A stretch of 64,000 nt of DNA from Candidatus Komeilibacteria bacterium (GCA_043801745.1 JAZDLR010000001.1:24374-88373); one strand, 5' to 3'; positions 2,909 to 48,961 are shown, numbered from the stretch's first letter. A program made the numbers and translations. The notes: generated by a model not told the origin, from the letters alone.

Positions 2909-2948
2909 TTGACCCCGTTAGAGGCGAAGCATCTCTAACGGGGTTGAC
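2909..2948. repeat. palindromic element, copy 1 of the TTGAC-CCCGTTAGA...TCTAACGGG-GTTGAC family
   Basis: ttgaccccgttagag-gcgaagcat-ctctaacggggttgac. The same arms recur at 17137, 20391, 21337, 23957, 28396, 40661 and 48864. Confidence 0.6.
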
Positions 2949-2972
2949 TTTTAATTGAATCTGTGCTAAAAT
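2944..2972 (+). promoter_or_regulatory. sigma70-like promoter overlapping the right arm of the palindromic element
   Basis: TTGACT at 2944-2949, a 17-nt spacer, and TAAAAT at 2967-2972. No protein ORF follows; a hairpin plus U-tract lies about 100 nt downstream. Confidence 0.35.
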
Positions 2973-3013
2973 GACTTATGTAGGTTCATTCTAGCTACGG
3001 AAAATAAAAAATA

Positions 3014-3068
3014 AACATCAGGTCAATCAACTCCACGCCAACACCGATTCTGATGTTGGTATTTTTTA
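3014..3068 (+). terminator. hairpin with a T-tract, possibly the end of a short non-coding transcript
   Basis: aacatcag ... ctgatgtt forms an 8-bp stem and is followed by ggtatttttta. Confidence 0.3.
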
Positions 3069-3178
3069 TATCGTTCTTTTGGTAGATAGTTACAACCAAT
3101 GAGCCACCACCTAGTGGGGCTACCAAATAATAAGTTGTGACTAATAGACATTTATAATTCACCACGAGGGTGAGTCAG

Positions 3179-3687
3179 CTAACAAGCTGATAAGAAAAAA
3201 CAAAACCAAATCAACATGCAGGCCCTATCTTCATCCAATGGAAGACAAGGCTCTAGCCTCGGGACCCCATGCTTGTTCCGAGGTTTTTGCTTTTTCACTC
3301 CACTCATCTTGACACGATAGCTAAACAGTGGTAGATTTGGCGCTAAATGTTCCTTGGGCATGTGACAAGCAATAGATTGCTGAATGGCAAAGCGCTGTTC
3401 AGAAATCTTCTCGGGCCAGCTGTTGTGGATCAGATTTACCACTATTAACGGCCCCACCGCCTTGAGCTGCTTGTCACAGTAGTATTTGGTACCGCCGGTG
3501 CGTTTGGGAACTGGTATGTGCGGCCACTACCACTACCAACCACCGGTGGTACCGAAAATAAATTTCCGCTGTGCTGCTGGTATTCAGGCCGACGCCATCC
3601 CTGAATTTGGGCCGCGCCAAATCCTGATACCTTCAGTACGGCGGGATATATTTCGCAAAATGCCTGTCCTGTTTTCGGTGCTAGCAA
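3179..3687 (-). pseudogene. possible degraded GC-rich gene remnant (two adjacent-frame ORFs of 92 and 80 aa)
   Basis: Two abutting minus-strand ORFs in different frames with locally elevated GC. No recognisable domain and no good alternative frame. Confidence 0.2.
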
Positions 3688-3847
3688 TCACGCCTTGCGT
3701 CAGCTAAGCGGCCTGCCTGCCGCGCAAGGTTGCCTTGATTGGCTTCACCGATCTGGCCGGACCCGACAAAGAAGTGACTCAGCTGATATTAGGGTACGCA
3801 ACCCCTAATCACTGACGATCTCTGAGTTAGGTCCGGTCTCTTTAATT

Positions 3848-3885
3848 TAAAAAACTCCACGACAAAGGAGTGAAATATTTTTTTA
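3848..3885. terminator. bidirectional terminator downstream of ruvB
   Basis: actccacgacaaaggagt hairpin flanked by A and T tracts. Confidence 0.4.
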
Positions 3886-3918
3886 TCATACTACAACCTA
3901 AAGCCTAATTCCTAACGC

Positions 3919-4950
3919 CTACAATAATTTCTGCGTCACATCCTGCGGCGGCGTCAATCCCATATGTTCATAGCCTCGTTCCGTAACCACGCGTCCACGT
4001 GGTGTCCGAGCGAGAAATCCCAACTGCATTAAATAGGGCTCGTAGATTTCTTCAATCGTTCCCATATCTTCCTGCATCGAAGCCGCCAAAGTGGTGAGCC
4101 CTACCGGTCCGCCGCTAAATTTTTCAATCACAGTTAACAATAACTGCCGGTCCAATTCTTCTAAACCCGCCTGATCAATACCTAACATGTCTAGGGCCTC
4201 TTGTGTTTGCCGCAAAGTAATACGTCCGCCGTCACCTTTGACTTGCGAAAAATCGCGCACGCGTTTCAAAATACGGTTGGCGATACGCGGAGTGGCACGG
4301 CTGCGGCGGGAAATTTCTGACGCCGCGTCATCATCCAATGATAAAGCCAATAGTTGCGCCGAACGCCGGACAATCTGACCGATTTCATCTTTGCGGTAAA
4401 AATCTAAACGGTAAGTTACGCCAAAACGGTCACGCAACGGCGCTGATAATAAATTGTAACGCGTGGTCGCGCCAATAATGGTAAAGCGCGGTAAATCTAA
4501 CCGAACTGTTTGCGCACTTGGTCCCTTACCAATAATTAGATCAATAGCGCAATCTTCCATAGCCGGATAAAGAATTTCCTCAATCACTTTATTCAGACGG
4601 TGGATCTCATCAATAAACAAAATATCTCCGCCTTGCATATTAGTCAGGATCGCCGCCAGATCTCCGGCTTTAGTAATAGCCGGCCCAGAAGTTGTCTTGA
4701 TATTAGCTCCCATCTCGCGGGCAATAATATGAGCCAGTGTTGTTTTGCCTAAACCCGGAGGACCATAAATCAAAACATGCTCAATCGGTTCATTGCGCTG
4801 CTTGGCCGCCTGCAAGAAAATATCCAGATTATTCTTCACCTGTTCCTGACCAATGTACTCGGCTAAAAATCTGGGACGCAAAGTCAGGTCCAGAGTCTTA
4901 TCCTCCGGCAGTTCCTTTAAACTCAAAGATTTATGGGGGTCAACAGTCAT
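3919..4950 (-). CDS. ruvB: Holliday junction branch migration ATPase RuvB
   Basis: Walker A motif [15 protein letters not shown] and the RuvB-type AAA+ and winged-helix C-terminus. Length 343 aa. Confidence 0.95.
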
Positions 4951-14782: not shown

Positions 14783-16513
14783 ATGCCACTATTTAAAAAA
14801 CCTCAACACCTCGATACTTCTGCCCAGGACGAGCAACATCCTCACGTGATTTTGGCGACCAGTGATACAGAAAAAAAGCTGGCCAACAAATTAGAGGAAA
14901 TTGATACAGAAAATTTGGAGCACGAGGCCAAAACCAAGGCTGAGCAATTGAGTCTTAAATATATTGACTTACGAAAATTACCGATTGCCCAGGATGCCAT
15001 GCAGCTATTATCTGAAGATCAATCCTTAGCTTTGCAGGCTGTAGTTTTTTTGTTTAACGATAACATTATCCGTATTGCCTCTACTAATCCCCAGAATCCT
15101 CAACTGGGGGCCAAAATTAAGGAGTTAGAAGAGCGCTATTCGGCTCAGGTTATTGTCTATTACGTTTCCGAACAGAGCTTACAGCAATCTCTGGACAAAT
15201 ATTCCCGTATTCCCAAGATCATTGAATCTATCAGTGGTGGCGTAGAGATCAAAGAAGAAGATATTAAAAAATATGAAGCTGGTATTGCCACTTTCCAAGA
15301 TCTTAATAGTTTTATCCAAAAGGCGGCCATCAGCGATATTATCGCCATCATTCTGGCAGCAGCGCTAAAATCTGAAGCTTCCGACATTCATATTGAAGCT
15401 GAAGAAAACCAAGTTAAGTTCCGCTTCCGCATTGACGGCGCCTTGCACGATACCGCCAGTCTGCCGATAGAACATTGGGCCAAAATCATTTCCCGCGTCA
15501 AATTAGTGGCACGTTTAAAACTCAATATCACCGCTCATCCACAGGATGGCCGCTTTACCATATTCATTGACAAGAAAAAAATTGAAGTCCGCGTCTCTAC
15601 TGTACCGACCAGCTACGGCGAAAGTGTAGTCATGCGTATCTTGCGGCAGGATGATTCGGTCTTCAACTTTGATAATCTGGGTTTGCGGGGAAAATCCTAT
15701 AGTGAGTTGCAGGTACAAATTAAGAAGCCTAACGGCATGATTATCTGTACCGGTCCAACCGGTTCGGGTAAAACTACTACACTCTATGCTGTGCTCAATC
15801 TGGTCAATAGTACGGAAAAAAAAATCATCACCTTAGAAGATCCGATTGAATACAAAATACCCGGCATTAATCAAAGTCAAATCGATTCGGCTGGCAACTA
15901 TTCATTTTCCGACGGTTTGCGCTCCATCCTGCGTCAAGATCCAGACATCATCATGGTGGGTGAAATCCGCGATCTGGAAACAGCCGAAGTCGCCATTAAT
16001 GCCGCTCTGACCGGACATTTAATGCTTTCCACCATGCATACTAATAGCGCCGCCGGTGCCATCCCCCGTTTATTAGCTATGGGCGTCAAACCTTTCTTGC
16101 TAGCTCCATCCATTAATGCCATCGAGGCGCAACGTCTGGTACGTAAACTCTGTCAGTATTGTAAAAAACCCGCCGAGCTGGATAATGCCACCATGACCCT
16201 GGTTCTTAACGAACTCAATAAATTATCACCCGAATCTGGTTACAAAGTTGATAATTTAAATACTGTAACCTTCTACACCTCTCCTGGCTGTGAAAAATGT
16301 CACGGACTAGGTTATAAAGGTCGCATTGGCCTATTTGAAATCCTAACCATGTCTCCGGCAGTAGAAAAATTAATCCTATCCGGCACAGTCTCAGAATATG
16401 ATTTGGAAGATTTAGCCGTTAAAGCCGGGATGGTCACTATGATTCAGGACGGAATACTAAAGTCCCTTGAAGGGATAACTTCTATTGACGAGGTGTTGAG
16501 TAAAACTGAATAA
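14783..16513 (+). CDS. pilB: type IV pilus / type II secretion assembly ATPase (GspE/PilB family)
   Basis: Walker [18 protein letters not shown], a Cys-tetrad region (CQYC...CEKC), and the GspE_N-like N-terminus. Confidence 0.85.
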
Positions 16514-16533
16514 TCAGACTAAAAAAACAAATT

Positions 16534-16572
16534 GCCCCTCACCAGCCATTGGCTGGTGAGGGGCTTTGGTTT
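16534..16572. terminator. bidirectional terminator
   Basis: gcccctcaccagcc-attg-gctggtgaggggc followed by tttggttt. Confidence 0.6.
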
Positions 16573-16843
16573 ACACGAAGTACCGGCGGAAGACGAGCCC
16601 TCCCCAGATGCCCAGCACAACTCCGGTTAGAAGCAACATCAGCGCCAAGATGCCGTTAATCGCCATTGCCGGCCAGTGCGGTGATTTGGTCGTAGCCAGA
16701 ATAGCAGCACCCATGATCGGCACTGCCCCGCCCGAAATCAAAACAGCACCAAATAATCTGTTTCTCAATTTCGGCCTCCCAGCACCAGAGTCTCCCAATA
16801 TTGCCGCACGGCAACTGCTGCCGCCGCGGCCATCAGTTGACAC
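16571..16843 (-). CDS. hypothetical small membrane protein in a GC-rich island (about 58% GC)
   Basis: The C-terminal hydrophobic stretch INGILALMLLLTGVVLGIWGGLVF. It overlaps the next ORF in another frame, so the gene structure is uncertain. Confidence 0.25.
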   Translation of the reverse strand: MSTDGRGGSSCRAAILGDSGAGRPKLRNRLFGAVLISGGAVPIMGAAILATTKSPHWPAMAINGILALMLLLTGVVLGIWGGLVFRRYFV

Positions 16844-17112
16844 ACCCGTTCAGGACTGGACAGTCGCCCCATCTCCAGACTCTTACTGGCCGATTCGCCA
16901 CCGGCGGCGTGAGGGGGAACAGAACCCAAACCATTCACCGGGTCATCAGAAATCTCCACCTGGGAGATAACTTCAACTCCTGGCGGAGGTACAGAGCCAG
17001 ACGCACCGGTGATTTCTCCGGTGGCATCTCTTACGACGAACACGTAGTCCATGGCTGCCTCTTTCGGTTGAGGGTGTTTAAGAAAAGTACGCAAAACGGT
17101 CACTCTGACCAT
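16765..17112 (-). CDS. hypothetical protein, GC-rich island; may be one frameshifted gene together with 16571..16843
   Basis: The ORF overlaps the downstream ORF by 79 nt in a different frame. No recognisable domain. Confidence 0.25.
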   Translation of the reverse strand: MVRVTVLRTFLKHPQPKEAAMDYVFVVRDATGEITGASGSVPPPGVEVISQVEISDDPVNGLGSVPPHAAGGESASKSLEMGRLSSPERVCQLMAAAAAVAVRQYWETLVLGGRN

Positions 17113-17136
17113 TGGTCAAGAGTATGCCTCAGTTTA

Positions 17137-17175
17137 ATTTGCCAGTCAACCCCATTAGAACATTATATTTTAACG
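17137..17175. repeat. palindromic element, copy 2 (CCCCATTAGA...TTAACGGGG variant)
   Basis: tcaaccccattagaa-cattatatt-ttaacggggttaagc. Confidence 0.5.
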
Positions 17176-17186
17176 GGGTTAAGCAA

Positions 17187-17298
17187 TATTAAATACCTCA
17201 CCTGTCCTCTCCTTCAAAAGGAGAGGAACGCTATTTAAGTGGCTTGCCCCCTACTGTTCCACCATACATCACCCCTCTCCTTTTCTAAGGAGAGGGTT
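17187..17298. mobile_element. MITE-like element with terminal inverted repeats, copy 1
   Basis: cctcacctgtcctctcctt ... aaggagagggttggggtgagg, with internal hairpins ctctccttcaaaaggagag and ctctccttttctaaggagag. Copies 2 and 3 are at 35172 and 62431. Confidence 0.6.
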
Positions 17299-17325
17299 GG
17301 GGTGAGGTTGTCTAATAACATGGCG

Positions 17326-19970
17326 TTACTCTAACTTCACCCTAGCATCAGCCAACTTCTTCTTTACTTCGTCCACCACCTTTCGCGGCGCACGGGAAGT
17401 AAAATTACTATCGGCTAATTTGGCTTCTAAATCGGCAATATATTTTTTCAATTCGGTCTGGTCAACGCTTTTCTCAACTCCCTGAATATCGGTAATTAAT
17501 CTAAACCAACTACCTTTTAGTTCCAGCTTTGATTCCACCTGATCTACCAGCTTCACGCGGCCTAGTGTTTCAATAAATGGCTTCAACGAATCGATCTTTG
17601 GCTGACCAATATACTGTACCTGACTAATCGTAGCCGCTGCTACTTTATTTTCCGCGCGGGCATTACGTAATACGGTCACAATTTCCTGCAATTTCTTCAT
17701 CTCTTCCGCTGCCCCGGTTACCGAGCCCCGATTACCGGTTACTGACGCCTCCTCCGGCCACTGCTCAATCATCAACAACTTATCCTTATTCACCTGTCCC
17801 CAAATTACTTCAGTCACAAACGGAATAAACGGATGCCAGAGCTTAAGTAGATTCTGCAACAAATATAATAATAAGCCATCGCGGTCTTTTTTGGTCTCGG
17901 GTTTAATCCGATTCTCAATTTTCGCAAGCTCGAGATACCAATCCGCGAACTTAGACCAGGTAAAATCGTAAAGTTTTTCCGCGGCCAGAGAAAACATTTT
18001 TTCGTTTAATAAATTGGTTACTTCCGTCACTAACCCGGTATACTCGTACCAAATCCAATAATCTATGTCACCGGATAAAACCGGCAGTTCTTCGATTAAT
18101 TTCGGCTGTTCAACACTGGTTAAGATAAAGCGGGAAATATTCCACAGCTTATTAATAAAGTTGCGGTAGCCCTGAATCTTTTCCGTGTAAAATTTAGAGT
18201 CACTGCCAGGACTAATACCGGCAATTAAACTCAAACGCAATGAATCCGCGCCATACCGACGGACAATATCCATCGGATCAATGCCATTACCTAAGGACTT
18301 AGAAAACTTTTTGCCTTCCGTATCGCGCAACATACCGTGGAAATAAACTTCCCGAAACGGAATTTGATCCAGAGCATACGTGGACATCATAATCATGCGT
18401 GCCATCCAGAAAAACAGCAGTTCATAACCCATCTGCATCCAGGCTGTCGGATGATACTGCTTCAAATCAGGAGTTTCTTTTGGCCAGCCGAGAGTGCTGA
18501 AAGTCCAAGTGCCGGAGGAAAACCAAGTATCAAGAGTATCTTCATCTTGCTGCCAGCCATCGCCAATTGGCGGTGTTACTCCGACGTACATTTCGGAGGA
18601 GTTAGTAGAAAGAAGCAAGGAGGAAGGGTTATCTTCCCTAGCTTCTTTCTCCTTTCTCCTGTCCTATACCAAACCGGAATCCTGTGGCCCCACCAAATCT
18701 GCCGGCTAATACACCAATCATGTAAATTATCTATCCACTGTAAATAACTTTTGCTAAAGCGCTCGGGCTGAATCGCAATTATATTCTCTTTCTTGCCACC
18801 GTGCCCAGTAGTTACTGCTTCACGCATCAGATCTTTCAGACTTTTTCCTTTTTTAGGAATCTGCTTATTGACATCAACAAACCACTGCAGTTTAATCTGC
18901 GGTTCCACTGGCACGTTGCCGCGGTCACTGATGGCCACGCGGTGAAGATAATCTTTTTTCACGTCATAAACTAAACCTTTTTTCTCAAGTTTCTGAACAA
19001 TCTTAGCTCGGGCTTCGCTAATGCTTAAACCCGCGAATTCTCTGGCAATAGGCAGCATTTTTCCGTCAAAGCCAATAATCTGCACTTTATCTAATTTATG
19101 CCGTTCAGCAATATCAAAGTCAACGCTGTCATGCCACGGCGTAATGGTCATGGCGCCAGTGCCAAATTCCGGATCAATAACTTTATCCTTAATAACCGTG
19201 GCCTTCACCGGACCGTTAATCCATTCGCAGTCAAAAGTATCACCATGCTTATATTTCCAATAACGCTTATCATCCGGATGCACCACGACATATTTATCGC
19301 CCAATTTAGTTTCCGGCCGGGCCGTAGTAATGATAAACGGCCCAAAGTGAAAATAATATAAGGGAATATTTTCTTCCTGCCAAACCAGTTCATCATCAGA
19401 AACCGTGGTCGCTAGTTTCGGATCCCAGTTAACGATCCGGTGTCCACGGTAAATCAAGTTATCATTATACATCCGGATAAACATCTCATTTACTGCCGCT
19501 GATCTCTGCTCATCAAAAGTATAAGCCAACCGTGACCAATCACAGCTGGTACCCATAATTCTAATTTGCTTTAATATCGTTTCCCGTGATTTATCCGCGT
19601 AATCTTTGATTAGCTGTAATAATTTCTCGCGACCCAATTCTGTCCGTGGATCTTTATATTTACCCGAAGCAATTAATTCTTTCTCTACCCGTGCCTGCGT
19701 GGCTACGGCCGCGTGATCAGTACCGGGCAGTAACAAAGTTTTCTTGCCCAGCATGCGTTGATAGCGGATCTGTAAATCCATCAGAGCATTTTCCATCGCA
19801 TGGCCCAAATGTAAAACTCCGGTCACATTTGGCGGCGGCATCATAATGGCATAGGGCTCACCTAAACTCGTGGCTAATTTATCCGGATTAAAATATCCTG
19901 AACTTTCCCAGATATGATAAATATCTGATTCGTAATTCGCTGGGTTATATATTTTTGGTAATTCTTTCAT
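17326..19970 (-). CDS. valS: valine--tRNA ligase, split by a frameshift into two ORFs (18576..19970 and 17326..18618)
   Basis: The N-terminal ORF carries PPPNVTGVLHLGHA (HIGH) and WCISRQIWWGHRIPVWY. The C-terminal ORF carries DTLDTWFSSG and KFSKSLGN (KMSKS). The frames change within a purine-rich/pyrimidine-rich segment of about 74 nt between the IPVWY and EMYVGV codons. Confidence 0.85.
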
Positions 19971-19988
19971 AGTATTATGTTTGTCCTT

Positions 19989-20053
19989 CCCCTCCTTACT
20001 AAGGAGGGGTAAGGCCCGCCCGCCTGCGAAGCGCAGCGAGTCGGGCGGGGGTG
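19989..20053. repeat. GC-rich nested-hairpin repeat (CCCCTCCTTACTAAGGAGGGG family), copy 1
   Basis: cccctccttactaaggagggg followed by gcccgcccgcc...cgggcgggggtgg. Related copies lie at 54996-55062 and 58600-58685. Confidence 0.5.
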
Positions 20054-20390
20054 GTAAAAAAATAAAACGCCAATAATAACTATTCGCGTTAACGGCCCCG
20101 CACCAAGCGCCGCGCTGGTGCGGGGCAAGCCCCGACAGCTGACGACACTAGATACAGAGAGACACCACCTTTAACAATACTCAATTTTCGCTGTAACGGA
20201 GCGCCCCGGCACGTTCTACTACCCTTGGTAGGGATTCTTCGAGCTACTCTTCCGCACAACTAAGCGGAATTTCTAGGAGACATTACCTAGATCTAGAGTA
20301 TTTATGTTTTCAAATCGACACCCCTTTTAATTTGGCTTTTGGATAGCCATACCGAGGCGCACTTTTAATGTAGCTCTGGGCTTATAAATA

Positions 20391-20432
20391 GTCAACCCCG
20401 TTAGAAACGCATTATTTCTAACGGGGTCAAGC
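20391..20432. repeat. palindromic element, copy 3 (perfect arms)
   Basis: gtcaaccccgttagaaa-cgcatta-tttctaacggggtcaagc. Confidence 0.6.
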
Positions 20433-20506
20433 AAATTTAAAGAGCCCCGCGCATTTCTGCACAGGGCTCCACGGACGTGATGTCCGGAATGGGTTACGTT
20501 TGCTAA

Positions 20507-21127
20507 CTAGCTGGCAGGGCTGATACGGACAGCGGCGTAAAGGACCTCAAATTCCTGCAGCTTATCTACCCATATCGGCCCCACACTCAAACGTCCAGCA
20601 TCTCTATAAATATTGGCCACACGCTCCCGCTCGGCAAAGAGCCACGTAGTTCCGAGAGCAACTACGGTGGCCCTAGGATTGAAACCGGGAAGCGCTCCGA
20701 GAGCCAACAGCTCTTCGGCTCTGGCCGGCCGGTATCCAACACGCCTCATGCGGCACACTGCTTCCCGCGGACTGACGCTCCGCGAGAAGGGGAAAAGCTC
20801 TATGACAACCGGCACCTTTCCCCGGCCCCTGAGTTTGATGTCGAAGGCCGCCGTATCAAGGCAACGGTGCGTGTAACTGCCCAAATCCATCATGTGTGAC
20901 AGATCTAGGGAATAGTCCACAATTACGGAGAAAATCTGACGACCAGCGGTAAGTGATTCGGCAATTAGTTTGGCGATCTTCTTGCGAAGGTCGCCATCCG
21001 TGTGCACATTGCTCAACGCTTCGTCGGTCCTCTCACCGACCAGAGCACGAACGTCCTCGGCGATCCATTTGAACATTTCGCCCAAAACGCCTACATTGCT
21101 CACGAATCCACTCCAAGAACAAGCCAT
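20507..21127 (-). CDS. hypothetical protein in a GC-rich single-gene cassette (about 57% GC)
   Basis: A 206-aa ORF bracketed by palindromic elements at 20391-20432 and 21337-21365. No recognisable motif. Confidence 0.5.
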   Translation of the reverse strand: MACSWSGFVSNVGVLGEMFKWIAEDVRALVGERTDEALSNVHTDGDLRKKIAKLIAESLTAGRQIFSVIVDYSLDLSHMMDLGSYTHRCLDTAAFDIKLRGRGKVPVVIELFPFSRSVSPREAVCRMRRVGYRPARAEELLALGALPGFNPRATVVALGTTWLFAERERVANIYRDAGRLSVGPIWVDKLQEFEVLYAAVRISPAS

Positions 21128-21336
21128 GGTTAGCCTCCTTCGTCGGCGTACCTCGTATCCCGCGCTTTGCAGGACGTAGGCGTACCGCTCTCTGGGGTAA
21201 TCTATATGGAAGCAGTGAAAACTGCCTATTTACTAGCTATGTTGTAATGTGCGTTGAATAACATAATAATAGCATATACATCAAAATCTGTCAATGGTTC
21301 GGCAAGCTCACCACATAAAAAAATGGCTATTATTAG

Positions 21337-21365
21337 CCACGTTAGAGAGCTGGTCTCTAACGGGG
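21337..21365. repeat. palindromic element, copy 4
   Basis: ccacgttagagag-ctgg-tctctaacgggg, embedded in a larger palindrome atggcta...tagccat. Confidence 0.5.
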
Positions 21366-21396
21366 TAGCCATATACTGCTCAAAATATCCCTAATA

Positions 21397-21816
21397 TTAC
21401 CTAATCGCCCTCTCCTTCTCGCCCCTCTGCTCCACCCGCACCCTAATCGCGCCTTTGGGCAAAATCTCTTTTACCTTATCTCCCCACTCGATCAAAACAA
21501 CAGAATCCGGCTGACCCAGATAATCTCCCAGACCAATATTTAATAATTCCTCATGACCAGTCAGACGGTAAGCATCCACGTGCACCAAATTAGTAATTTT
21601 GCCGTGATGGACAGAGTATACTTTCATTAATACAAAAGTCGGACTATTTACCACCTCGGTAATACCTAAGCCCTTGGCTATGCCTTTAGCAATCACGGTT
21701 TTGCCGGCTCCCAAATTTCCTTCCAAAGAAATAACTTCCCCGCCTTTTAAACTGGCGGCGAATTTCTTGGCCCAGGATAGGGTTTGTGTTTCTGATTTAG
21801 AAATGAATTTTTTCAT
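21397..21816 (-). CDS. tsaE: tRNA threonylcarbamoyladenosine biosynthesis ATPase TsaE
   Basis: LEGNLGAGKTVIAKGIAKGLGI...SPTFVLMKVY is the YjeE/TsaE Walker-type motif. Length 139 aa. Confidence 0.8.
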   Translation of the reverse strand: MKKFISKSETQTLSWAKKFAASLKGGEVISLEGNLGAGKTVIAKGIAKGLGITEVVNSPTFVLMKVYSVHHGKITNLVHVDAYRLTGHEELLNIGLGDYLGQPDSVVLIEWGDKVKEILPKGAIRVRVEQRGEKERAIR

Positions 21817-21895
21817 GTGTTGTTGTCACACTGAGCTTGTCGAAGTGCGACAACCATTGCCTCCTTCGACAGGCTCAGGATGACAATGGTTGTCC

Positions 21896-22936
21896 CTACG
21901 TTAAACGCAATTGCGGATCAAATCTCAACTTCTTCCAATTCTCCTTCAACCCTTTATCCTTCCGATGATAATAGGCCGCGGCGGCAATCATGGCGGCGTT
22001 ATCACCGGTAAATTCCACTGCCGGAATTAGTACGGACAACCCTAGGGTTGTCCCTACAGCCCGACATCTGATGCCTAATTCCTTATTCGCACTAACGCCG
22101 CCCACAACCATTAAGGATTTAACTTTATATTGTTTGGCTGCGCGCTCCATTTTTTTAATTAATACATCACACGCAGCTAACTGAAATGACGCGCAAATAT
22201 CATTAACTGTGTTCTTCCCTAACTTCTTTCTACTTGCTTCTTGCTTCTGAACATAATAAAGCACCGCAGTTTTCAAACCAGCAAAACTAAAATTAAAATT
22301 ATCCTTGTCAATCATCGGCCGTGGGAAATCAATGGCCGCCGGGTTTCCTTCGCTGGCTAATTTAGCCACAATCGGACCGCCCGGATAACCAAGATCCAAA
22401 ATTTTGGCTACTTTATCAAAAGCTTCGCCCGCCGCGTCATCCAGTGTCTGACCAATTAATTGATATTTACCGTGCCCCTTCATTAAAACTAATTCCGTAT
22501 GCCCCCCGGAAACGATCAAAACCAGTGCCGGGAAAATCTTTTTGTCGTTCTTAAATAATTCCGGATAGGTTAGCCAGTTGGCGTAAATATGCGCTTCCAA
22601 ATGATTAATCCCAACTAAAGGTTTATTTAATGAATAAGCCAGTGACTTAGCTGTTTCCGTGCCAACCATAAGCGAAGTAATTAATCCCGGACCCCTAGTC
22701 ACGGTCAATAAGTCAGCTTCTCTGACCGCTTTTAATCCAATACTTTTATCTAATAGGGGTAGTAATACTTCCAAGTGTTTACGGGCCGCCACTTCCGGCA
22801 CCACACCACCGTATTTTTTATGAATATTGATCTGCGACGCTACAAGATGTTGCTGTAAATCAAAACCGCTCTTAGTTACTTGCAATAAGGCAAAAGAGGT
22901 CTCGTCGCAGGATGTTTCAATGGCAAAAATTCGCAT
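21896..22936 (-). CDS. tsaD: tRNA N6-adenosine threonylcarbamoyltransferase TsaD (Kae1/YgjD family)
   Basis: MRIFAIETSCDETS..., GINHLEAHIY, VSGGHTELV and GDNAAMIA are diagnostic of TsaD. Confidence 0.9.
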   Translation of the reverse strand: MRIFAIETSCDETSFALLQVTKSGFDLQQHLVASQINIHKKYGGVVPEVAARKHLEVLLPLLDKSIGLKAVREADLLTVTRGPGLITSLMVGTETAKSLAYSLNKPLVGINHLEAHIYANWLTYPELFKNDKKIFPALVLIVSGGHTELVLMKGHGKYQLIGQTLDDAAGEAFDKVAKILDLGYPGGPIVAKLASEGNPAAIDFPRPMIDKDNFNFSFAGLKTAVLYYVQKQEASRKKLGKNTVNDICASFQLAACDVLIKKMERAAKQYKVKSLMVVGGVSANKELGIRCRAVGTTLGLSVLIPAVEFTGDNAAMIAAAAYYHRKDKGLKENWKKLRFDPQLRLT

Positions 22937-23002
22937 AAAAATATACTAACATGCTCCTCTATATTTCAAAAGGGGCGAACCATGCTGGTCCGCCCCCTGT
23001 TC

Positions 23003-23365
23003 TTATCCTCCCATTTGCTGACTCTGTACCTTGATGTGTTCCACCAGCCGTCTTAGATCCGATGAAACTGTCAGTCTGGCAGCCAGTTCCATTCCCGCCC
23101 TGGTCACGATCGGCGCTGTAGCTCCTAAATGAAGCAGTCCACGTTGCCGCAAACTGGCGACCTCTATGTCCAGTTGCCTCAGCCGAAGCAGAGGATCAGT
23201 GGCAAACATTGGTCGTTGCCATAAGCCACCAGCCGTAGGATCTTGTCCTAAGAAATCACCAATCAACTGACGGACTAACCTCCACGGCGGCGAGCGTCCT
23301 TCTTGCTGGCTCAAAGCCAACACACAGAGAACCGCCTCGTCAGTTGAAATCTCCATCACCTGCAA
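23003..23365 (-). CDS. hypothetical protein (GC-rich), winged-helix-like; paralogous to the next ORF
   Basis: A 120-aa ORF with a helix-turn-wing pattern LRQRGLLHLGATAPIVTRAGMELAARL, comparable to LEQRSLIIRHRGCLGWELTEQGIELGQQL in the 23379 ORF. Confidence 0.4.
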   Translation of the reverse strand: MQVMEISTDEAVLCVLALSQQEGRSPPWRLVRQLIGDFLGQDPTAGGLWQRPMFATDPLLRLRQLDIEVASLRQRGLLHLGATAPIVTRAGMELAARLTVSSDLRRLVEHIKVQSQQMGG

Positions 23366-23378
23366 CGCATCACCTCCA

Positions 23379-23798
23379 TCAGTGAGACACTACTCCCGGA
23401 AATCCGTGGGCATCGGCTTTCGGAATGGATGAGCACATGATATCCACCAGCTCACTGATTACGCTTTCCAGAGGAAGACAATCAGCCAACTGCTGACCCA
23501 GTTCAATCCCTTGCTCGGTCAGCTCCCAGCCCAGACAGCCCCGATGACGGATGATCAAACTGCGCTGTTCCAAACTGGTCAGATCCCGCCGCAAGCTGGC
23601 AACCAGCTGCCTTTCATCCGAAGGCAAATAACCGTAGATAGCCAACTCCGTGACTTCGCGTTTGCGGGCGTCGGCAATCAGTGCACGTCCCAGTTCACAC
23701 ATAGTGGGATAAGCCGGTCTTTCCGTCCAAGCCGACAGTTGATAGAACAGGCGCAGAAGCTGCAGCTGACAATCTCCAGCCAAATCCTGAAGAGACAC
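23379..23798 (-). CDS. hypothetical protein (GC-rich), winged-helix-like
   Basis: A 139-aa ORF; see the paralogue at 23003..23365. Confidence 0.4.
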   Translation of the reverse strand: MSLQDLAGDCQLQLLRLFYQLSAWTERPAYPTMCELGRALIADARKREVTELAIYGYLPSDERQLVASLRRDLTSLEQRSLIIRHRGCLGWELTEQGIELGQQLADCLPLESVISELVDIMCSSIPKADAHGFPGVVSH

Positions 23799-25550: not shown

Positions 25551-25556
25551 ACATTC

Positions 25557-28484: not shown

Positions 28485-28588
28485 GTCTCAAGATTTACTA
28501 CTGCTTTCAGTAATAATTTAATACATCGGTTTTCCCAATCAACCGATCAATATTTCTTAAAACTTACAACTGTTAACTTTTAACTTCT

Positions 28589-28825
28589 ATGGGTCTACCC
28601 AGCAAGAAACGTTCGAGTTCATCTAAGCGCCGTCGAGCTGCTCATTTTGCTTTATCTAATCCGGCGCGCAGCAAATGCGCCCACTGCGGTCATGACACCA
28701 GGCCACATTTTGCCTGCAAGAACTGCGGTTTTTACCGCGGCCGTGAAATAGTCAATACTCTTAAAAAATCTAAATCTTTAACCCGGTCAGGCAAAGCAGC
28801 TAAAGCTACGACCTCCGAAAAATAG
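28589..28825 (+). CDS. rpmF: 50S ribosomal protein L32 with a C-terminal basic extension
   Basis: MGLPSKKRSSSSKRRRAAHFAL...CAHCGHDTRPHFACKNCGFYRGREIV is the L32 zinc-ribbon signature. Confidence 0.8.
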   Translation: MGLPSKKRSSSSKRRRAAHFALSNPARSKCAHCGHDTRPHFACKNCGFYRGREIVNTLKKSKSLTRSGKAAKATTSEK

Positions 28826-28871
28826 CCCGCTCTTTCGTTCTTTACTTGTTCTTTCACCTGGCCCACCATCT

Positions 28872-29783
28872 ATGGCCAACCGACATCTTGCCCGCACCTT
28901 AACGCTTCAAACTCTTTTTGAATGGGATTTCTACCTGGGTAAATTAGATGTGCCAGCAGCCATGGCTACTATTAAACACGAATTTGCACCTGATTTTGAC
29001 GATCAGGGTTTTAGTTTACGCTTAACTGAAGAAGTTATTGATAATCACTTTATCATTGATAAGCTGATCACTAAATTCGCGCCCGAATGGCCTTTGGATC
29101 AAATTACCTTAGTTGACCGCAACGTTTTGCGTATCGGCATCTATGAACTAAAATTTGATAAAACTATTCCACCCAAAGTCGCTATTAATGAAGCCATTGA
29201 ATTAGCCAAGACCTACGGTGGCACTTCCTCGGGAAAATTCGTCAATGGCGTCCTGGGCAGCATCTATAAAGAAATGATCCAACGCGGCGAGAAACAAACA
29301 TTAGAGAGCCAAGGCATCAAAGAAGAGTCCAGCGGCGGCATTATCTACCGGCAAGAAGACGAATCCTATAAATTCGCTCTCATCCTTGACTCCTATGGCA
29401 AGTGGACTTTCCCTAAGGGTCACGTTGATGGTAAAGAAAAACCCGAAGAGGCAGCCATCAGAGAAATCCAAGAGGAAATTGGCATCCAAAATTTGGTCAA
29501 CAAAGGACACCTGGATGATCTGCAATTAAAAGTTCACAAACCCGAACAGCAGCCTTTCCGTAAATTAGTCCACGTTTATCTTTTCGAAACTACTGATACC
29601 GATCTGAAGCCGCAGATATCCGAAGTCAAAGACGCCCGTTGGTATGATCCTCAAGAAGCCTTGGACATTATCGGCTATGAAGAAACTAAAAATATTTTCT
29701 GCCAAGTACTCGATCAATTAAAAATTCCTTATGAAAGATCTGCAACTGCTGGAAAGCAGCCTGAAGCTGAAATTCAAAAATAA
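28872..29783 (+). CDS. nusB: NusB antitermination factor fused to a C-terminal NUDIX hydrolase domain
   Basis: Residues 1-140 are NusB-like (ARTLTLQTLFEWDF...LVDRNVLRIGIYEL...INEAIELAKTYGG). Residues 160-300 carry a NUDIX box GHVDGKEKPEEAAIREIQEEIGI. Confidence 0.7.
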   Translation: MANRHLARTLTLQTLFEWDFYLGKLDVPAAMATIKHEFAPDFDDQGFSLRLTEEVIDNHFIIDKLITKFAPEWPLDQITLVDRNVLRIGIYELKFDKTIPPKVAINEAIELAKTYGGTSSGKFVNGVLGSIYKEMIQRGEKQTLESQGIKEESSGGIIYRQEDESYKFALILDSYGKWTFPKGHVDGKEKPEEAAIREIQEEIGIQNLVNKGHLDDLQLKVHKPEQQPFRKLVHVYLFETTDTDLKPQISEVKDARWYDPQEALDIIGYEETKNIFCQVLDQLKIPYERSATAGKQPEAEIQK

Positions 29784-30420
29784 AGAGATTATCCGTTCAG
29801 CCTTGACTCACCGCTCTTACCTGAACGAACATAAGAATCTCGGTATAGACCATAATGAACGTTTAGAGTTCCTGGGTGATGCTGTTTTGGAATTAGTTGT
29901 CACTGATTACCTCTTTAGTAATTACCCCAATCCGGAAGGCGAACTGACCAATTGGCGCTCCAGTTTAGTTAATGCCAACACTTTAGCTGATTTGGCGGAA
30001 GAAATTGAAATCAATGATTATCTTTATTTAAGCCGCGGCGAAGCCAAGGACTCCAGCAGCAAAGCCCGTCGTATTATCCTGGCCAATGCCTACGAAGCTT
30101 TGATCGGCGCCATTTATCTTGATCAGGGTTACGCCAAAGCTGATAAGTTTATCAAAGAACGGGTACTGATAAAACTAGAAGAAATATTGCGTAAACATTT
30201 ATACATCGATCCCAAGAGCAAACTACAAGAAAAGTCCCAGGAACTTTATGGTATTACTCCTCATTATAAAGTGCTGGGCGAAACCGGGCCCGACCATCAT
30301 AAAAAATTTGTCGTCGGTTTATATATAGATAAGGAACAAATCGCCCAAGGCGAAGGTTACTCCAAACAAGAAGCCCAGATCAATGCCGCGGCCGAGGGCC
30401 TGAAAAAGAAACACTGGTAG
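29731..30420 (+). CDS. rnc: ribonuclease III
   Basis: The RNase III signature ERLEFLGDAVLELVVTDYLF and the dsRBD C-terminus. It overlaps the previous gene by 53 nt. Confidence 0.85.
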   Translation: MKDLQLLESSLKLKFKNKEIIRSALTHRSYLNEHKNLGIDHNERLEFLGDAVLELVVTDYLFSNYPNPEGELTNWRSSLVNANTLADLAEEIEINDYLYLSRGEAKDSSSKARRIILANAYEALIGAIYLDQGYAKADKFIKERVLIKLEEILRKHLYIDPKSKLQEKSQELYGITPHYKVLGETGPDHHKKFVVGLYIDKEQIAQGEGYSKQEAQINAAAEGLKKKHW

Positions 30421-35171: not shown

Positions 35172-35260
35172 CCTCACCCCAACCCTCTCCTTAGAAAAGG
35201 AGAGGGAGGATGCACAGTGGGATAGTGTTCCTCTCCTTTTGAAGGAGAGGGCAGGTGAGG
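35172..35260. mobile_element. MITE-like element, copy 2 (inverted orientation), abutting the smc stop codon
   Basis: cctcaccccaaccctctccttagaaaaggagagg...ctctccttttgaaggagagggcaggtgagg. Confidence 0.55.
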
Positions 35261-35399
35261 TATTCAAAAAAACATATGAATTGACATAATCCCTCTCCTA
35301 TAGTAATATCCTCCCATCAATATCTTCTTGATACTTGATTCCTACTCACAGCGCGAAATAGCTAATCAGTAGGACAGAACAACTAAGTACCATAAGCTT

Positions 35400-40660: not shown

Positions 40661-40701
40661 CTTGTCCCGTTAGAAGCAACGCTTCTAACGGGACTTGACA
40701 A
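40661..40701. repeat. palindromic element, copy 7 (perfect 13-bp arms)
   Basis: ttgtcccgttagaag-caacg-cttctaacgggacttgacaag. Confidence 0.55.
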
Positions 40702-41162
40702 GAGGCCCAACCTTGTCTAAACTGATGCTACTTGCTCTTTGTAGCCCCTTTATCCATCAACATCCATTTCATTTCCTTGAGGCTTGAAACCTCATACCGG
40801 AGTAGCTGCCGGTAACAATCTAATGAGTTGAGAACAAACAGTAGTATCTGTAGCTCGGGTATTTCTGTTTTTTCTTAACGCCGAATCCGTGGCCAAAGGA
40901 TAAATGGAACCTAAATAAATTTCTGACGTTCCGATTCGAAGACCGCGAATGGCGTTAACCCGCCGTATCGAGCTCAGCTCGAGAAGGAGGGTTGTCCGAC
41001 ATTAAACGAACAAGAGAAGAGCACCTTGACAACTGAATCAACAGCAACACCATTAGATAGTGAATAACAATTGAAATGTGACGGTTAATGTCAATTCGTT
41101 GCTGCGTTCTGCGCAGTAACATAACATGAATTTTTTTCGAGCCTACAAGCTCACTCTAACAA

Positions 41163-42775
<1,613 letters not shown>

Positions 42776-46384: not shown

Positions 46385-46536
46385 AACTCTTTCCAAAATA
46401 TTTTAGCCCGCTATACTACCTTCACAGCTGCAGGTATAGTTTCCGCCAGAGGCGGACCCGCCTCTGGCGGGCAAGGGTAAAACCTGTCTTTCCCAAAAAA
46501 ATGTCGTCTTGCCTTTGGCGGGATCGCCCAAAACAC

Positions 46537-46610
46537 GCGGGATTAGTACAATGGTAGTATGTTGGCTTCCCAAGCCAAAGACGCGAGTCCGATTCTCGTA
46601 TCCCGCTCCA
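46537..46610 (+). tRNA. tRNA-Gly (anticodon CCC), with an atypical T-loop TCCGATT
   Basis: GCGGGATTAGTACAATGGTAGTATGTTGGCTTCCCAAGCCAAAGACGCGAGTCCGATTCTCGTATCCCGCTCCA. Confidence 0.75.
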
Positions 46611-46730
46611 TCCTTCGCTTCGCAGAGCGAAGCTACGGATGGCCTTCGGCCATGCGTAGTGACGAAGTCAACGAAGGATGCCCGCCGAAGCCTTGGCGAA
46701 GGCGGGCTATCTATCATTAAACCCAATCAT

Positions 46731-47126
46731 ATGTTGTCAAAAAAAATATTAATTATTCTAGCCGTAATAGTTATACTAGCTGCTGCTGTTCTGGCCCTCC
46801 GCTTCCTGAGCGGACCGGAAGATACTTGGCTGTGCGTCAATAATGCTTGGGTCAAACATGGTAATCCCAGTCAAACCCAGCCGCCAGCAACGGGCTGTGG
46901 TGACACATCAGCCAATCAAAATACTTCCGTGCCAACCGCTGCTGATGCTAGATGTGAGTGTACGAAAGCTCTAGCCGGAAGCACCGGTTATTGGTATGAT
47001 CCTGAATCGGGCAACTGCTGGTCAGCGCAACAACAAAAATTCTGCCAACCGAATTTTACTACCCAAGCCGAATGCCTAAAGACTTGCGGTAACTTATGGA
47101 AAAAAGCCCACGGATCGAGTCAATAA
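46731..47126 (+). CDS. hypothetical small Cys-rich exported protein with a signal/anchor sequence
   Basis: MLSKKILIILAVIVILAAAVLAL followed by 10 Cys in 100 aa. The ORF-track start at 46509 crosses tRNA-Gly. Confidence 0.45.
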   Translation: MLSKKILIILAVIVILAAAVLALRFLSGPEDTWLCVNNAWVKHGNPSQTQPPATGCGDTSANQNTSVPTAADARCECTKALAGSTGYWYDPESGNCWSAQQQKFCQPNFTTQAECLKTCGNLWKKAHGSSQ

Positions 47127-47183
47127 TAGAATACCGAAACTGACAAGAAACCGCAGCCGATTCATGTTATACTAAAGGCATCT

Positions 47184-48734
47184 ATGCTAAAACAATATTT
47201 GAATAAAATCCTTACCGCTGCCTTAATCATTCCACTGGTCCAAACCTCGGCCATCAGTTTAAGCTTAAGTACGCAGATGAAGGGTAAAATTCTATTGCAG
47301 GTGGAATCCCACGGCGAAGCCTGGTATGTCTTACCTACTGATGGTAAGCGCTATTACCTCAAAGATGGTGCTACTGCCTACTCTGCCTTGCGCGCCTTTG
47401 GTCTGGGTATATCTAATGCCAACATTGCTAAAATTCCGGTTGGCTTAGAGCCACGATTCCAGGACACCGACACTGATGGTGATAGTCTGCCGGATCAACT
47501 GGAAGATGCCATTGGCACCAAAAAGGATAATGCCGACACTGATGGGGATAGTTTTAACGACGGACAAGAAATTACCAATAGCTACAATCCTTTGGGTGCA
47601 GGGAAACTCACTTTTGACAGCAAATTAATCAATCAAGTTAAAGGTAAAATTTTACTGCAAACCGAAGCGCACGGCGAAGCCTGGTATGTCCGGCCTGATG
47701 ATGGTAAACGGTATTATATGAAAAATGGCGAAGCAGCTTTCCAAATAATGCGTTTCTTAAGTCTTGGTATTACTAATGTCAATTTGAATAAGATAGCTGT
47801 CGGTACTATCGCCGGAGCTACTCCAACTTCAACCACAACACCAAATCCCACAACTCCAACACCTTTGCCTCTTTCTTCCGACGCCTACCGTAATTATGCT
47901 TTGGCTGTTTGTTATGCCCGTACTCATGCCGCCGCCCTTAACACTTTCCCCAGCGGATCACTACGTAACGACATGCAAACGGCTATCGATGACCAAAGCC
48001 AAACCTGCAACGAATTCACTACTGAGGAAATTAATGGCATTGCCGGCCTGCTAAATACTGACAGTGATTCTGATGGAGTTAATGCTTTACTGGAACAATA
48101 CTATGGAACTTCAGATACCAAAGCTGATACTGATGGAGATGGTGTCAAAGACTTACAGGAAATTCAACTTACCAGCGATCAATACACCTGGAATACAGCT
48201 GCCGATCAGGTTAAGTATGAAGGACTATTAGCTTCAACATCGTGGCAGCCACTTACGATGAAAAATCGTATTGATGGCTTAACTTTTGCCGACAGCCAAA
48301 TCAATGCACTTAGCGGAGATGGAATAAAAATAATAACGCTAGCAACACAGAGTAATGCCGGCTGCTTCACCATCAGTAAAACCTCAGGTTATCTTCGCTT
48401 TGAAGGAAAAACTGATTGCGCCACCGGCTACTGGCTACAAGCTACCGGCTCGCTAATGGATCTCAAAATTACCACTCCAACTCTTCTTAAAAGCACTTTT
48501 GCTCCGGTGAGTACTCCGTCTGAAGCCGCCGCTTTTGTAGCAGCGATTACTCCCGGGCTAGATGTTGATGCTGGTGACGCGCCCAAGGGTAAAGTCCTAA
48601 CACTTGATGACGGTTATTTAGTCCAACTTTCAGTAGTGAAAACTCTCGGTTTTAGCCACGCGCCTCAAAAGGTTATCTATAAGGTATCAACTGATGGAAC
48701 TGTCCAAAGTCTGGCTTACGAACGCGTAGATTAG
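47184..48734 (+). CDS. hypothetical secreted protein with duplicated about 55-aa modules and thrombospondin-type-3-like DxDxDG calcium-binding repeats
   Basis: A signal peptide. KGKILLQ(V/T)E(S/A)HGEAWYV.PDGKRYY occurs twice, and the repeats DTDGDSLPD, DTDGDSFNDG, DSDGVNA and DTDGDGVKD are present. Confidence 0.5.
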   Translation: MLKQYLNKILTAALIIPLVQTSAISLSLSTQMKGKILLQVESHGEAWYVLPTDGKRYYLKDGATAYSALRAFGLGISNANIAKIPVGLEPRFQDTDTDGDSLPDQLEDAIGTKKDNADTDGDSFNDGQEITNSYNPLGAGKLTFDSKLINQVKGKILLQTEAHGEAWYVRPDDGKRYYMKNGEAAFQIMRFLSLGITNVNLNKIAVGTIAGATPTSTTTPNPTTPTPLPLSSDAYRNYALAVCYARTHAAALNTFPSGSLRNDMQTAIDDQSQTCNEFTTEEINGIAGLLNTDSDSDGVNALLEQYYGTSDTKADTDGDGVKDLQEIQLTSDQYTWNTAADQVKYEGLLASTSWQPLTMKNRIDGLTFADSQINALSGDGIKIITLATQSNAGCFTISKTSGYLRFEGKTDCATGYWLQATGSLMDLKITTPTLLKSTFAPVSTPSEAAAFVAAITPGLDVDAGDAPKGKVLTLDDGYLVQLSVVKTLGFSHAPQKVIYKVSTDGTVQSLAYERVD

Positions 48735-48753
48735 CCAAAAAATTTGACTTTTG

Positions 48754-48788
48754 CCACCCGGCAGATCTTTGTCGGGTGGTTTTTTTGT
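48754..48788 (+). terminator. rho-independent terminator
   Basis: ccacccggcagatctttgtcgggtgg followed by ttttttttg. Confidence 0.6.
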
Positions 48789-48961
48789 TTAATAATAAGC
48801 CTTAACCATCTTAGATGAACTATTTTAAGGGCTTGACCCTGTTTCAAGCATCTGTAAAAAACTTCTAATGGGGTTGACATCGGTATTGACAAAATAAGCC
48901 AGATGTGATAAAAGGATTAATCGATTCGCTATATGCGAATCTTTTTTATTAGAGAAAGCCT

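Follow-up and report, generated by a model that had tools for sequence, protein, structure and literature searches.

Short palindromes in a Komeilibacteria genome as very probable copies of a miniature mobile element with a 4-bp target duplication

What are the palindromes that recur along the genome of a Candidatus Komeilibacteria bacterium, and how did they come to stand where they do? The stretch analysed here, called the window throughout, comprises 64,000 nucleotides (nt) of this member of the Candidate Phyla Radiation (CPR) (GCA_043801745.1 JAZDLR010000001.1:24374-88373). A first-pass annotation of the window named eight palindromes with the arms CCCC(G/A)TTAGA and TCTAA(C/T)GGGG, and proposed that they mark the edges of GC-rich cassettes in the manner of integron attC sites, or alternatively that they resemble repetitive extragenic palindromic (REP) sequences or miniature transposable elements with inverted repeats (MITEs). 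We conclude that the eight palindromes are very probably copies, of different ages, of a non-autonomous mobile element that duplicates 4 bp of its target. The REP/MITE-like alternative thus came close to the evidence for a mobile element with 4 bp duplicated on insertion.

Anatomy of the eight copies and traces of insertion

Reading of the sequence located the palindromes at all eight of the places named. The exact pattern CCCCRTTAGA-N(3-20)-TCTAAYGGGG has two matches in the window with 0.00 expected, and the 10-mer arm with at most one mismatch has 19 matches against 6.8 expected, a count reached by no shuffle; by these counts all eight palindromes are real and far above chance. Single arms were not enriched in the window outside the palindromes, where the residual one-mismatch matches amount to about the chance number, and the idea of a DNA uptake sequence was rejected for this reason.

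The window element consists of CCCCGTTAGA, a variable middle and TCTAACGGGG, and measures 28-37 bp. The gap between the 10-nt arms is 8-11 nt, the stems reach 11-14 bp through complementary bases that are specific to each copy (GAG/CTC, AAA/TTT, AGC/GCT), and the interiors of all eight copies differ from one another. The ends had been described as inverted TTGAC/GTCAA caps; the flanks are instead direct repeats of 4 nt. These are perfect in five of the eight copies, reading TTGA in copies 1, 3, 6 and 8 and CTTG in copy 7, while copies 2 (TTAA/TTGA) and 5 (TTCA/TTAA) each have one mismatch and copy 4 is ambiguous. The 4-nt direct repeat that flanks each element is a target-site duplication. The copies, with their flanks, are the following.

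Copy 1, 2909-2947: 31-bp palindrome at 2913-2943, flanks TTGA/TTGA; intact, with a 12-bp stem and -13 kcal/mol
Copy 2, 17146-17182: 29-bp palindrome at 17150-17178, flanks TCAA/TTAA; arms decayed, -4.7 kcal/mol
Copy 3, 20392-20430: 31-bp palindrome at 20396-20426, flanks TCAA/TCAA (TTGA on the other strand); intact, -13.5 kcal/mol
Copy 4, 21333-21369: 29-bp palindrome at 21337-21365, left arm CCACGTTAGA, flanks TTAG and TAGC
Copy 5, 23953-23989: 29-bp palindrome at 23957-23985, flanks TTCA/TTAA; left arm decayed to CCTTGTTAGA
Copy 6, 28397-28432: 28-bp palindrome at 28401-28428, flanks TCAA/TCAA; between the VanW and rpmF genes
Copy 7, 40661-40697: 29-bp palindrome at 40665-40693, flanks CTTG/CTTG; arms TCCC.../...GGGA, intact, with a 14-bp stem and -16.1 kcal/mol
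Copy 8, 48833-48877: 37-bp decayed element at 48837-48873, flanks TTGA/TTGA; no longer folds

What had been taken for a half copy at 48864 is a full copy 8 whose left arm has decayed to CCCTGTTTCA. Copy 4 has no TTGAC, and its flanks become TAGC/TAGC if its left arm lost one base. Folding energies for single-stranded DNA are -13 to -16 kcal/mol in copies 1, 3 and 7, close to -10 in copies 4 and 6, and close to -4 in copies 2, 5 and 8. The copies, which occur at a density of about one per 8 kb, are therefore graded from intact to visibly decayed (copies 2, 5 and 8), which fits insertions and not a conserved operator.

Filled and empty sites could be compared directly in two cases. Among the loci fetched from other genomes (numbered with the prefix L), L004 reads CGAG, a 47-bp element and CGAG where L019 has a single CGAG; the site belongs to a non-coding stretch of about 190 nt, downstream of typA, that is otherwise conserved between the two. 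The second case is copy 5 of the window, within a YgjP-like gene (23904-24452), to which it adds 33 in-frame nt encoding the 11 residues VHLVRNGTSNG; the orthologues in the syntenic loci L121 and L122 both lack these residues. At the nucleotide level the window reads TCC G-TTCA-(29 bp)-TTAA-T CCC, against TCA G-TCAA-T TCT with a single TCAA in L122. Copy 5 survives in the gene because the 29 bp of the element and the 4 duplicated bp add up to 33 nt, which keeps the reading frame. In other genomes, 20 of 151 short copies among the matches listed (13%) lie inside long open reading frames (ORFs), and 18 of these 20 are 29 or 32 bp long, lengths that keep the frame when the 4-bp duplication is added.

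Neither L121 nor L122, in which TsaD is 77-78% identical and the gene order around copies 2-6 is shared, has a canonical copy. An apparent empty site in a comparison of L002 with L056 was rejected, as it involved two different elements in a repetitive context, and a protein-level comparison with L001 was set aside since the region could not be aligned. The conserved non-coding stretch downstream of typA (3060-3290 in L004 and 3470-3650 in L019, about 190 nt with 76% identity between two CPR genomes) may itself be a small RNA gene.

Genes and promoters beside the copies

The ORFs that the first-pass annotation had described as GC-rich have 53-57% GC against 42-47% in core genes. A GC-rich segment is found no more than 300 nt away from four of the eight copies (P about 0.007 in comparison with random positions that were not confined to intergenic DNA), so that the claimed association is real; it is modest and does not amount to a cassette boundary. 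All but one of these ORFs are absent from L121 and L122, and none has a Pfam, NCBIfam or PADLOC match, bar a partial RelA/SpoT-like match for 24833-25261. For this 142-aa ORF (54% GC) the match covers only the N-terminal portion of the RelA/SpoT models and scores far under their cut-offs; its product may be a small stand-alone fragment or domain. Two further GC-rich ORFs, 2052-2420 and 2407-2808, are adjacent paralogues with 35% identity and a shared motif, ITMLESxxRRRP.

Are the palindromes then integron-like attC sites, or other recombination sites, at which horizontally acquired GC-rich cassettes end? In an attC site R'' (RYYYAAC) is at the 5' end and R' (GTTRRRY) at the 3' end, pairing is imperfect with extrahelical bases, the length is 57-141 bp, and the site stands at the 3' end of a promoterless cassette. 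Like the palindromes, attC sites are imperfect palindromes that fold as a single strand and carry GTT.../...AAC motifs; the arms GTTAGA and TCTAAC resemble integron core sites, four or five copies have an ORF with 53-57% GC within 150-415 nt, and copies 3 and 4 bracket one such ORF. However, the core order is reversed, the 5' arm carrying GTTAGA and the 3' arm TCTAAC, and the palindromes have no extrahelical bases or imperfect inner boxes, their stems being perfect over 11-14 bp within an overall length of only 26-33 bp. Each copy has its own target-site duplication (that of copy 4 being ambiguous), which attC sites lack and which is not a product of integron recombination; with a 4-bp duplication to each, copies 3 and 4 must have inserted independently.

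The GC-rich genes next to the palindromes have promoters and terminators of their own, and this holds for the 206-aa ORF between copies 3 and 4. It has four distant homologues, which stand among housekeeping genes in other CPR genomes, and those fetched have 53-56% GC in loci of 41-44% GC with no palindromes nearby. As the homologues are equally GC-rich without the element, high GC is a property of the gene family and not the mark of an imported cassette. Integron sites belong with a cassette array and an integrase; no gene array was seen in the window and no integrase turned up among its ORFs, which were not exhaustively searched for recombinases. Given the reversed cores, the duplications, the promoter and terminator of the bracketed gene and its palindrome-free homologues, an attC origin is extremely improbable and the proposal of cassette boundaries falls. 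The co-location is best read as both features using the few permissive intergenic spaces around stand-alone genes.

A second feature of the neighbourhood is the promoters. Six of the eight duplications overlap a TTGAC(A/T) hexamer, and for five of them a -10-like match at a distance of 16-18 nt was counted; a -10-like hexamer follows it after 17 nt at copies 1, 2, 3 and 7, whereas at copies 6 and 8 the -10-like match follows a second TTGACA located 12 bp downstream. The promoter-like sites are listed below.

2944-2972, plus strand: TTGACT-17-TAAAAT at copy 1, its -35 box formed by the right TTGA and host bases (score 5.5)
Flank of copy 2, minus strand: TTGACT-17-CATACT, aimed at the GC-rich ORF 16765-17112
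20395 to 20367, minus strand: TTGACT-17-TACATT in the flank of copy 3, before a 400-nt leader and valS
21294 to 21266, minus strand: promoter which, with a terminator-like hairpin, neighbours copy 4
28388 to 28360, minus strand: at copy 6, TTGACA and then TTGACA-17-TATCAT
40695-40723, plus strand: TTGACA-17-TAAACT at copy 7, its -35 box overlapping the right duplication
48886-48914: at copy 8, TTGACA and then TTGACA-17-TAAAAG, ahead of the ORF 48962-49492

The site at copy 7 lies about 430 nt upstream of the 16S rRNA gene (41157-42773). A position after terminators and before promoters, as first described, thus holds for most copies and fails for copy 5, which is within coding sequence. The element had also been thought to supply or adjoin a -35 box at copies 1 and 6; the TTGAC is composed of the duplicated target and host DNA. 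Among the matches listed, TTGA/TCAA duplications are found in seven of 18 validated CPR copies against two of about 50 elsewhere, and in four of eight in the window; a good -10 hexamer at 16-18 nt follows nine of 16 TTGA-duplication sites, against 21 of all 83 TTGACW sites in the window. Since the flank consensus G-YNNR-C includes GTTGAC, the TTGA excess is in part a target preference. The remainder probably reflects survival, as an insertion that rebuilds a -35 box downstream of itself would do little harm in a genome where intergenic DNA is scarce: in this CPR genome copies would have landed in, or survived only at, promoter -35 boxes, where the duplication would rebuild the hexamer downstream so that the promoter remained intact.

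The same neighbourhood would suit an operator or an upstream promoter element of the adjacent TTGAC promoters, that of the 16S rRNA gene included, given that six of eight copies abut TTGAC(A/T) with a -10-like hexamer at 17 nt and that one copy is upstream of the 16S rRNA gene. Against such a role, the half-site spacing varies (8-11 nt in the window, 6-13 nt elsewhere) and the extended stems covary, the same promoters in the syntenic relatives have no copies, three copies have decayed and one is inside a gene. Moreover, among the matches listed the same sequence stands beside unrelated genes in at least eight phyla, and the opposite end of the element has a TTGA too, which serves no promoter there. 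We consider an operator very improbable, and the preference of the first-pass annotation for a hairpin with a variable loop over an operator of fixed spacing is borne out by the varying spacing, the covariation of stem positions 11-13 and the relatives that lack the motif.

Another view is that the hairpins are kept for host use, as terminators or insulators before strong promoters or as stabilisers of mRNA 3' ends, with a mobile origin being secondary. The intact copies fold at -13 to -16 kcal/mol, copies stand between convergent or tandem units and directly upstream of -35 boxes, and complementarity is kept despite turnover of the sequence. In a terminator scan of 16000-30000, which covers copies 2-6, only copy 3 passed, on the minus strand; by eye the other copies have no T-run after the stem. 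Separate canonical terminators are already present beside copies 3 and 4, three of the eight copies are unable to fold, and the relatives manage without any. Host use is compatible with a mobile element, and as the main reason for the hairpins we judge it distinctly unlikely.

Several features of these neighbourhoods deserve mention on their own. The roughly 900 nt that follow the strong promoter-like site of copy 1 (2990-3900) have no ORF above 92 aa and may represent an undescribed non-coding RNA or a decayed gene; an Rfam search of 2850-3950 with E up to 1 returned only a weak mir-7360 match, below the gathering score, which was taken as chance. The minus-strand valS is split into the ORFs 18576-19970 and 17326-18618, which overlap by 43 nt, suggesting a frameshift or an assembly error. 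Its 400-nt leader (19971-20366) is rich in GC hairpins and has no T-box or other Rfam match, and with E up to 1 the stretch 19900-20420 gave none either. The 16S rRNA gene, which has a length of 1617 nt, contains at 41252-41350 an insertion of about 100 nt that is A/T-rich and near-palindromic. The gene is not followed by a 23S gene, and genes for tRNA-Ile, Phe, Pro and Gly begin at 44092.

Short and long forms in other genomes

Elements with these termini were sought in a genome scan with one genome per species (at least 120 loci), in viral contigs (23 loci) and in metagenomes, where the conserved subterminal motif of two long forms was used (at least 120 loci). Among the genome matches listed, 34 loci belong to Patescibacteria/CPR, 18 to Omnitrophota, 15 to Nitrospirota, 11 to Desulfobacterota and seven to Planctomycetota, with others that include two archaeal bins. 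Copies validated by their duplication were found, among the matches listed, in at least eight phylum-level groups, including Omnitrophota, Patescibacteria, Nitrospirota, Planctomycetota, Desulfobacterota, Gammaproteobacteria and a DPANN archaeon. A single 29-mer (interior TAGTAAACA) recurs unchanged at eight loci, from Omnitrophota, Nitrospirota, Patescibacteria and three viral contigs. The family is one of widespread miniature palindromic mobile elements with a 4-bp duplication.

Among the matches listed, the left 4 nt equal the right 4 nt in 46 of 127 copies, against six expected from shuffled pairing; when unique copies from genomes and viral contigs are pooled, 49 of 137 have a perfect duplication against 5.7 expected. 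The duplication is exactly 4 nt, with a 5-nt repeat seen once, and the distribution of mismatches is bimodal. The flanks follow the consensus G-YNNR...YNNR-C, that is, an A/T-rich target Y-N-N-R; TAAA and TTTA are the commonest duplications, followed by TTGA/TCAA, CTAA, TTCA and CGAG, and TTAA itself is rare.

The length of the short form peaks at 29 bp (63 of 137 among the matches listed), with an arm spacing of 6-13 nt outside the window. Beyond the 10-bp core, stem position 11 is paired in 124 of 137 copies (A-T 54, G-C 34, T-A 33) and position 13 still in 54%, while position 14 is at the random level, so that the unit is a 13-bp stem with a 3-nt loop. The minimal unit is a near-perfect palindrome that reads 5'-CCCCGTTAGA, three variable complementary bases, a short loop and TCTAACGGGG-3'.

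The same ends bound longer elements. Arm pairs 47-146 bp apart carry perfect 4-bp duplications in the genome loci, as in L021 (69 bp), L028 and L035 (114 bp each), L076 and L090 (103 bp each) and L103 (97 bp), and small hairpins are nested in larger elements in L004, L030, L049 and L090. The whole size range with these termini is 26-250 bp. Since they bound elements of 47-250 bp, the termini act as terminal inverted repeats, 10 bp of which are conserved and whose complementarity extends to 13 bp.

The canonical long form, present in at least 120 metagenome loci, is 120-122 bp long. It is composed of a left terminus, internal hairpins and a terminal hairpin in which an inner copy of the left terminus pairs with the right terminus; this inner arm covaries with the right arm, and G-T pairs are tolerated on one strand only. 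Its flanks are nearly fixed: among the matches listed, 96 of 107 left flanks are TTTA and 86 of 116 right flanks are TTTAC. Its orientation relative to the upstream neighbour gene is mildly biased (49:24, P=0.005). Versions of 150-250 bp are the 122-bp form with inserted small hairpins, each with its own 4-bp duplication; the variant hairpins nested in it include CCCCGTAAGA...TCTTACGGGG and CCCCGTGTGAAG...CTTCTATCGGGG.

Two other elements were met on the way. L122, a relative without the main family, has at 3256-3364 a 109-bp element with 20-bp inverted termini (CCCCGATAGACCTGCGTCCA), whose arms resemble the CCCCGATAGA-type variant hairpins nested in 122-bp elements. The window itself holds a second, unrelated MITE-like family at about 17196-17311, 35174-35261 and 62430-62546, 85-105 bp long with the termini ACCTCACC...GGTGAGGT. 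Each of its copies has two hairpins, CCTCTCCTT-N3-4-AAGGAGAGG (six exact matches against none expected), and one copy lies 15 bp from copy 2 of the palindrome.

Candidate enzymes and relation to known systems

By which enzyme could such hairpins be moved? One answer, the main rival to a cut-and-paste mechanism, is given by REP sequences and REPINs: the hairpins would be single-stranded substrates of an IS200-like transposase encoded elsewhere in each genome as a single copy (Y1 HUH, of the REP-associated tyrosine transposase or RAYT type), and the tetranucleotide would be its cleavage and target site instead of a duplication from a staggered cut. REPs and REPINs are likewise short (20-40 bp), G+C-footed palindromes in many copies, with selection for the hairpin and an enzyme acting in trans. 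The covarying stems indicate that the hairpin is selected here too, and the 122-bp form adds its covarying terminal hairpin with G-T tolerance on one strand, its near-fixed TTTA/TTTAC flank and its orientation bias. Its first internal hairpin is preceded on the 5' side by AAAG, next to a TTAC junction, a pair that resembles the guide and cleavage pair of IS608. Y1_Tnp genes occur in five of the 120 genome loci listed (L011, L020, L044, L095 and L108); on both sides each has a short hairpin of its own (CTTAGAGGTGNCACCTCTAAG in L044, for instance), which is in itself a RAYT/REP arrangement in CPR and Omnitrophota genomes.

However, these Y1 genes are 0.7-7 kb away from the elements and flanked by different hairpins, and there is no Y1 gene in the window or in the 120 metagenome loci listed. 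The 4-mer differs among copies within one genome and is the same on both sides, which fits a staggered cut and not guide-paired cleavage. In REPs one end of the hairpin has a tetranucleotide tag, GTAG or CGTC for instance, that is fixed and unpaired (PMC3733652). The elements described here have no such tag, their flanks being variable and identical on both sides; they have true terminal inverted repeats, and 13% of copies are intragenic. REPs and REPINs differ further in having no target duplication and in being lineage-specific and extragenic. A REP/RAYT system is therefore rather unlikely. Palindrome-associated transposable elements (PATEs), which are of the IS200/IS605 type, have no terminal inverted repeats, different subterminal hairpins at each end and a fixed tetranucleotide 5' of the left end. 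Examined for these features, the 122-bp form has internal hairpins and a near-fixed TTTA(C) flank, yet also terminal inverted repeats of 13 bp, and in the short form the flanks are variable.

DDE cut-and-paste transposons are recognised by terminal inverted repeats together with a staggered duplication of fixed length. The terminal inverted repeats and the staggered 4-bp duplication thus point to a DDE-type transposase, which, acting in trans, would move the element. The closest formal match is the IS1380/piggyBac group, an assignment that we hold tentatively, as nearly an even matter; an enzyme of another kind is possible, and a single-strand enzyme that recognises hairpins is a doubtful but conceivable agent. 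piggyBac is marked by ends of the form CC...GG, an inverted repeat of 13 bp and an A/T-rich duplication of 4 bp (PMC10813416), and its prokaryotic counterpart is the IS1380 family (PMC5718144). The element shares with this group CC(C)...(G)GG ends, an inverted repeat of about 13 bp and an A/T-rich duplication of 4 bp (4-5 bp in IS1380), and TAAA, CTAA, TCAA and TTAA are found both among its duplications and among piggyBac variants. The IS1380 ends that we read are CCTAGATTCTACGT in ISEcp1, CCTGAATAATTCATA in IS1678 (duplication GATAG) and CCTGAATTATTCA in a Lactiplantibacillus plantarum member (duplication TTTAT). Among the three to four members read, IS1380 ends begin CCTAGAT... or CCTGAAT..., with 5-bp duplications, and do not match CCCCGTTAGA; a phmmer search with ISEcp1, IS1678, ISKpn23-like and L. 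plantarum probes found no IS1380-like ORF in any fetched locus. With the CC...GG ends shared and the terminal sequence not, the assignment to IS1380 can only be provisional.

Several points weigh against a mobile element of this kind. Neither the window nor the fetched loci, about 265 in number (about 1.5 Mb), yielded a transposase gene between or beside the termini. We looked for long arm pairs with a duplication and extended inverted-repeat identity and ran Pfam on ORFs between distant arms; the candidates for an autonomous parent proved to be ordinary genes between separate copies and were rejected. A length of 29 bp is too little for a conventional looped DDE synaptic complex. Stem positions 11-13 change freely from copy to copy and still remain complementary, and there are 125 distinct interiors among about 150 copies. 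Simple copying of a master element with subsequent neutral decay would not lead one to expect this; it implies either that the hairpin is selected or that some mechanism produces it. The duplication is perfect in only 36% of copies, many of the others being the terminal hairpin of a longer element, which does not explain all of them. For window copies other than copy 5 there is no exact empty site, the nearest relatives being too diverged, and part of the taxonomic breadth may be mis-binning, since most of the genomes are metagenome bins. Clustering of recurrent neighbours in the 120 genome and 120 metagenome loci listed yielded only generic families (among them two-component systems, ABC transporters, GTPases and AMP-binding enzymes).

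A 29-bp element that is too short for a looped complex would either be mobile in its own right, treated by the enzyme as one palindromic site, or be a "solo hairpin", the remnant of a longer element after loss of the interior; we hold the two to be about equally likely. A solo hairpin would arise by recombination between the outer left terminus and the inner copy, with the original duplication kept. More tentatively, and in our view improbably as a whole, the 29-bp hairpin may be the transposing unit itself, a folded or palindromic substrate that crosses phylum and domain boundaries, whose interior is regenerated, for example by fold-back synthesis, and which in CPR bacteria prefers the -35 hexamer of promoters and may enter genes in frame, with 11 residues added to the protein. 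If so, it would be the smallest mobile DNA element described.

The enzyme of interest is one that recognises a hairpin or inverted repeat of 10-13 bp and makes a 4-bp staggered insertion, and if units of only 29 bp are among its substrates, its compact mode of DNA insertion would be of a new type. A direct way to find it is offered by the TTTA target of the 122-bp form, which is very specific. CPR bacteria and other uncultured lineages of groundwater and sediment are thought to have compact, repeat-poor genomes; the present results point to a family of mobile palindromes shared among uncultured lineages, CPR included, with three routes of persistence in a dense genome: duplication of the -35 box, a frame-preserving length and nesting in its own relatives. 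Motif-based searches for operators or terminators can be misled by such hairpins. They also break metagenome assemblies, and contig ends hold several of the copies.

Rfam has no match at the window elements, at the gathering threshold, and none in 14 loci with long forms. Literature searches with CCCCGTTAGA and TCTAACGGGG returned only primers and oligonucleotides, a match to a "77-bp inverted repeat" of Porphyromonas gingivalis being rejected as an artificial oligonucleotide, and the element family is not described in the literature that we searched on MITEs in CPR and Omnitrophota, on REPs with target duplication and on IS1380 MITEs. To our knowledge, no parent insertion sequence is known for the 29-bp element.

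Among known systems, MITEs share most of its general features: they are non-coding, have terminal inverted repeats and a short duplication, are nested, lie mostly in intergenic or promoter-proximal positions and vary widely in size down to REP-like remnants. Prokaryotic MITEs include short derivatives such as QMITE1 and QMITE2 of Coxiella, and QMITE1 copies range from 39 to 400 bp (PMC10969869). The elements described here differ in a modal length of 29 bp that is almost all stem, in interiors that are hypervariable yet complementary, and in having the same 10-bp termini across many phyla, an archaeon and viral contigs and not in a single genus. The Rickettsia palindromic elements (RPEs) are also palindromic and selfish, and they too insert into genes in frame and add a peptide. 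They are, however, about 150 bp long, confined to Rickettsia and encode a conserved peptide, whereas the elements of the present family are 29-32 bp long and are spread over many phyla.

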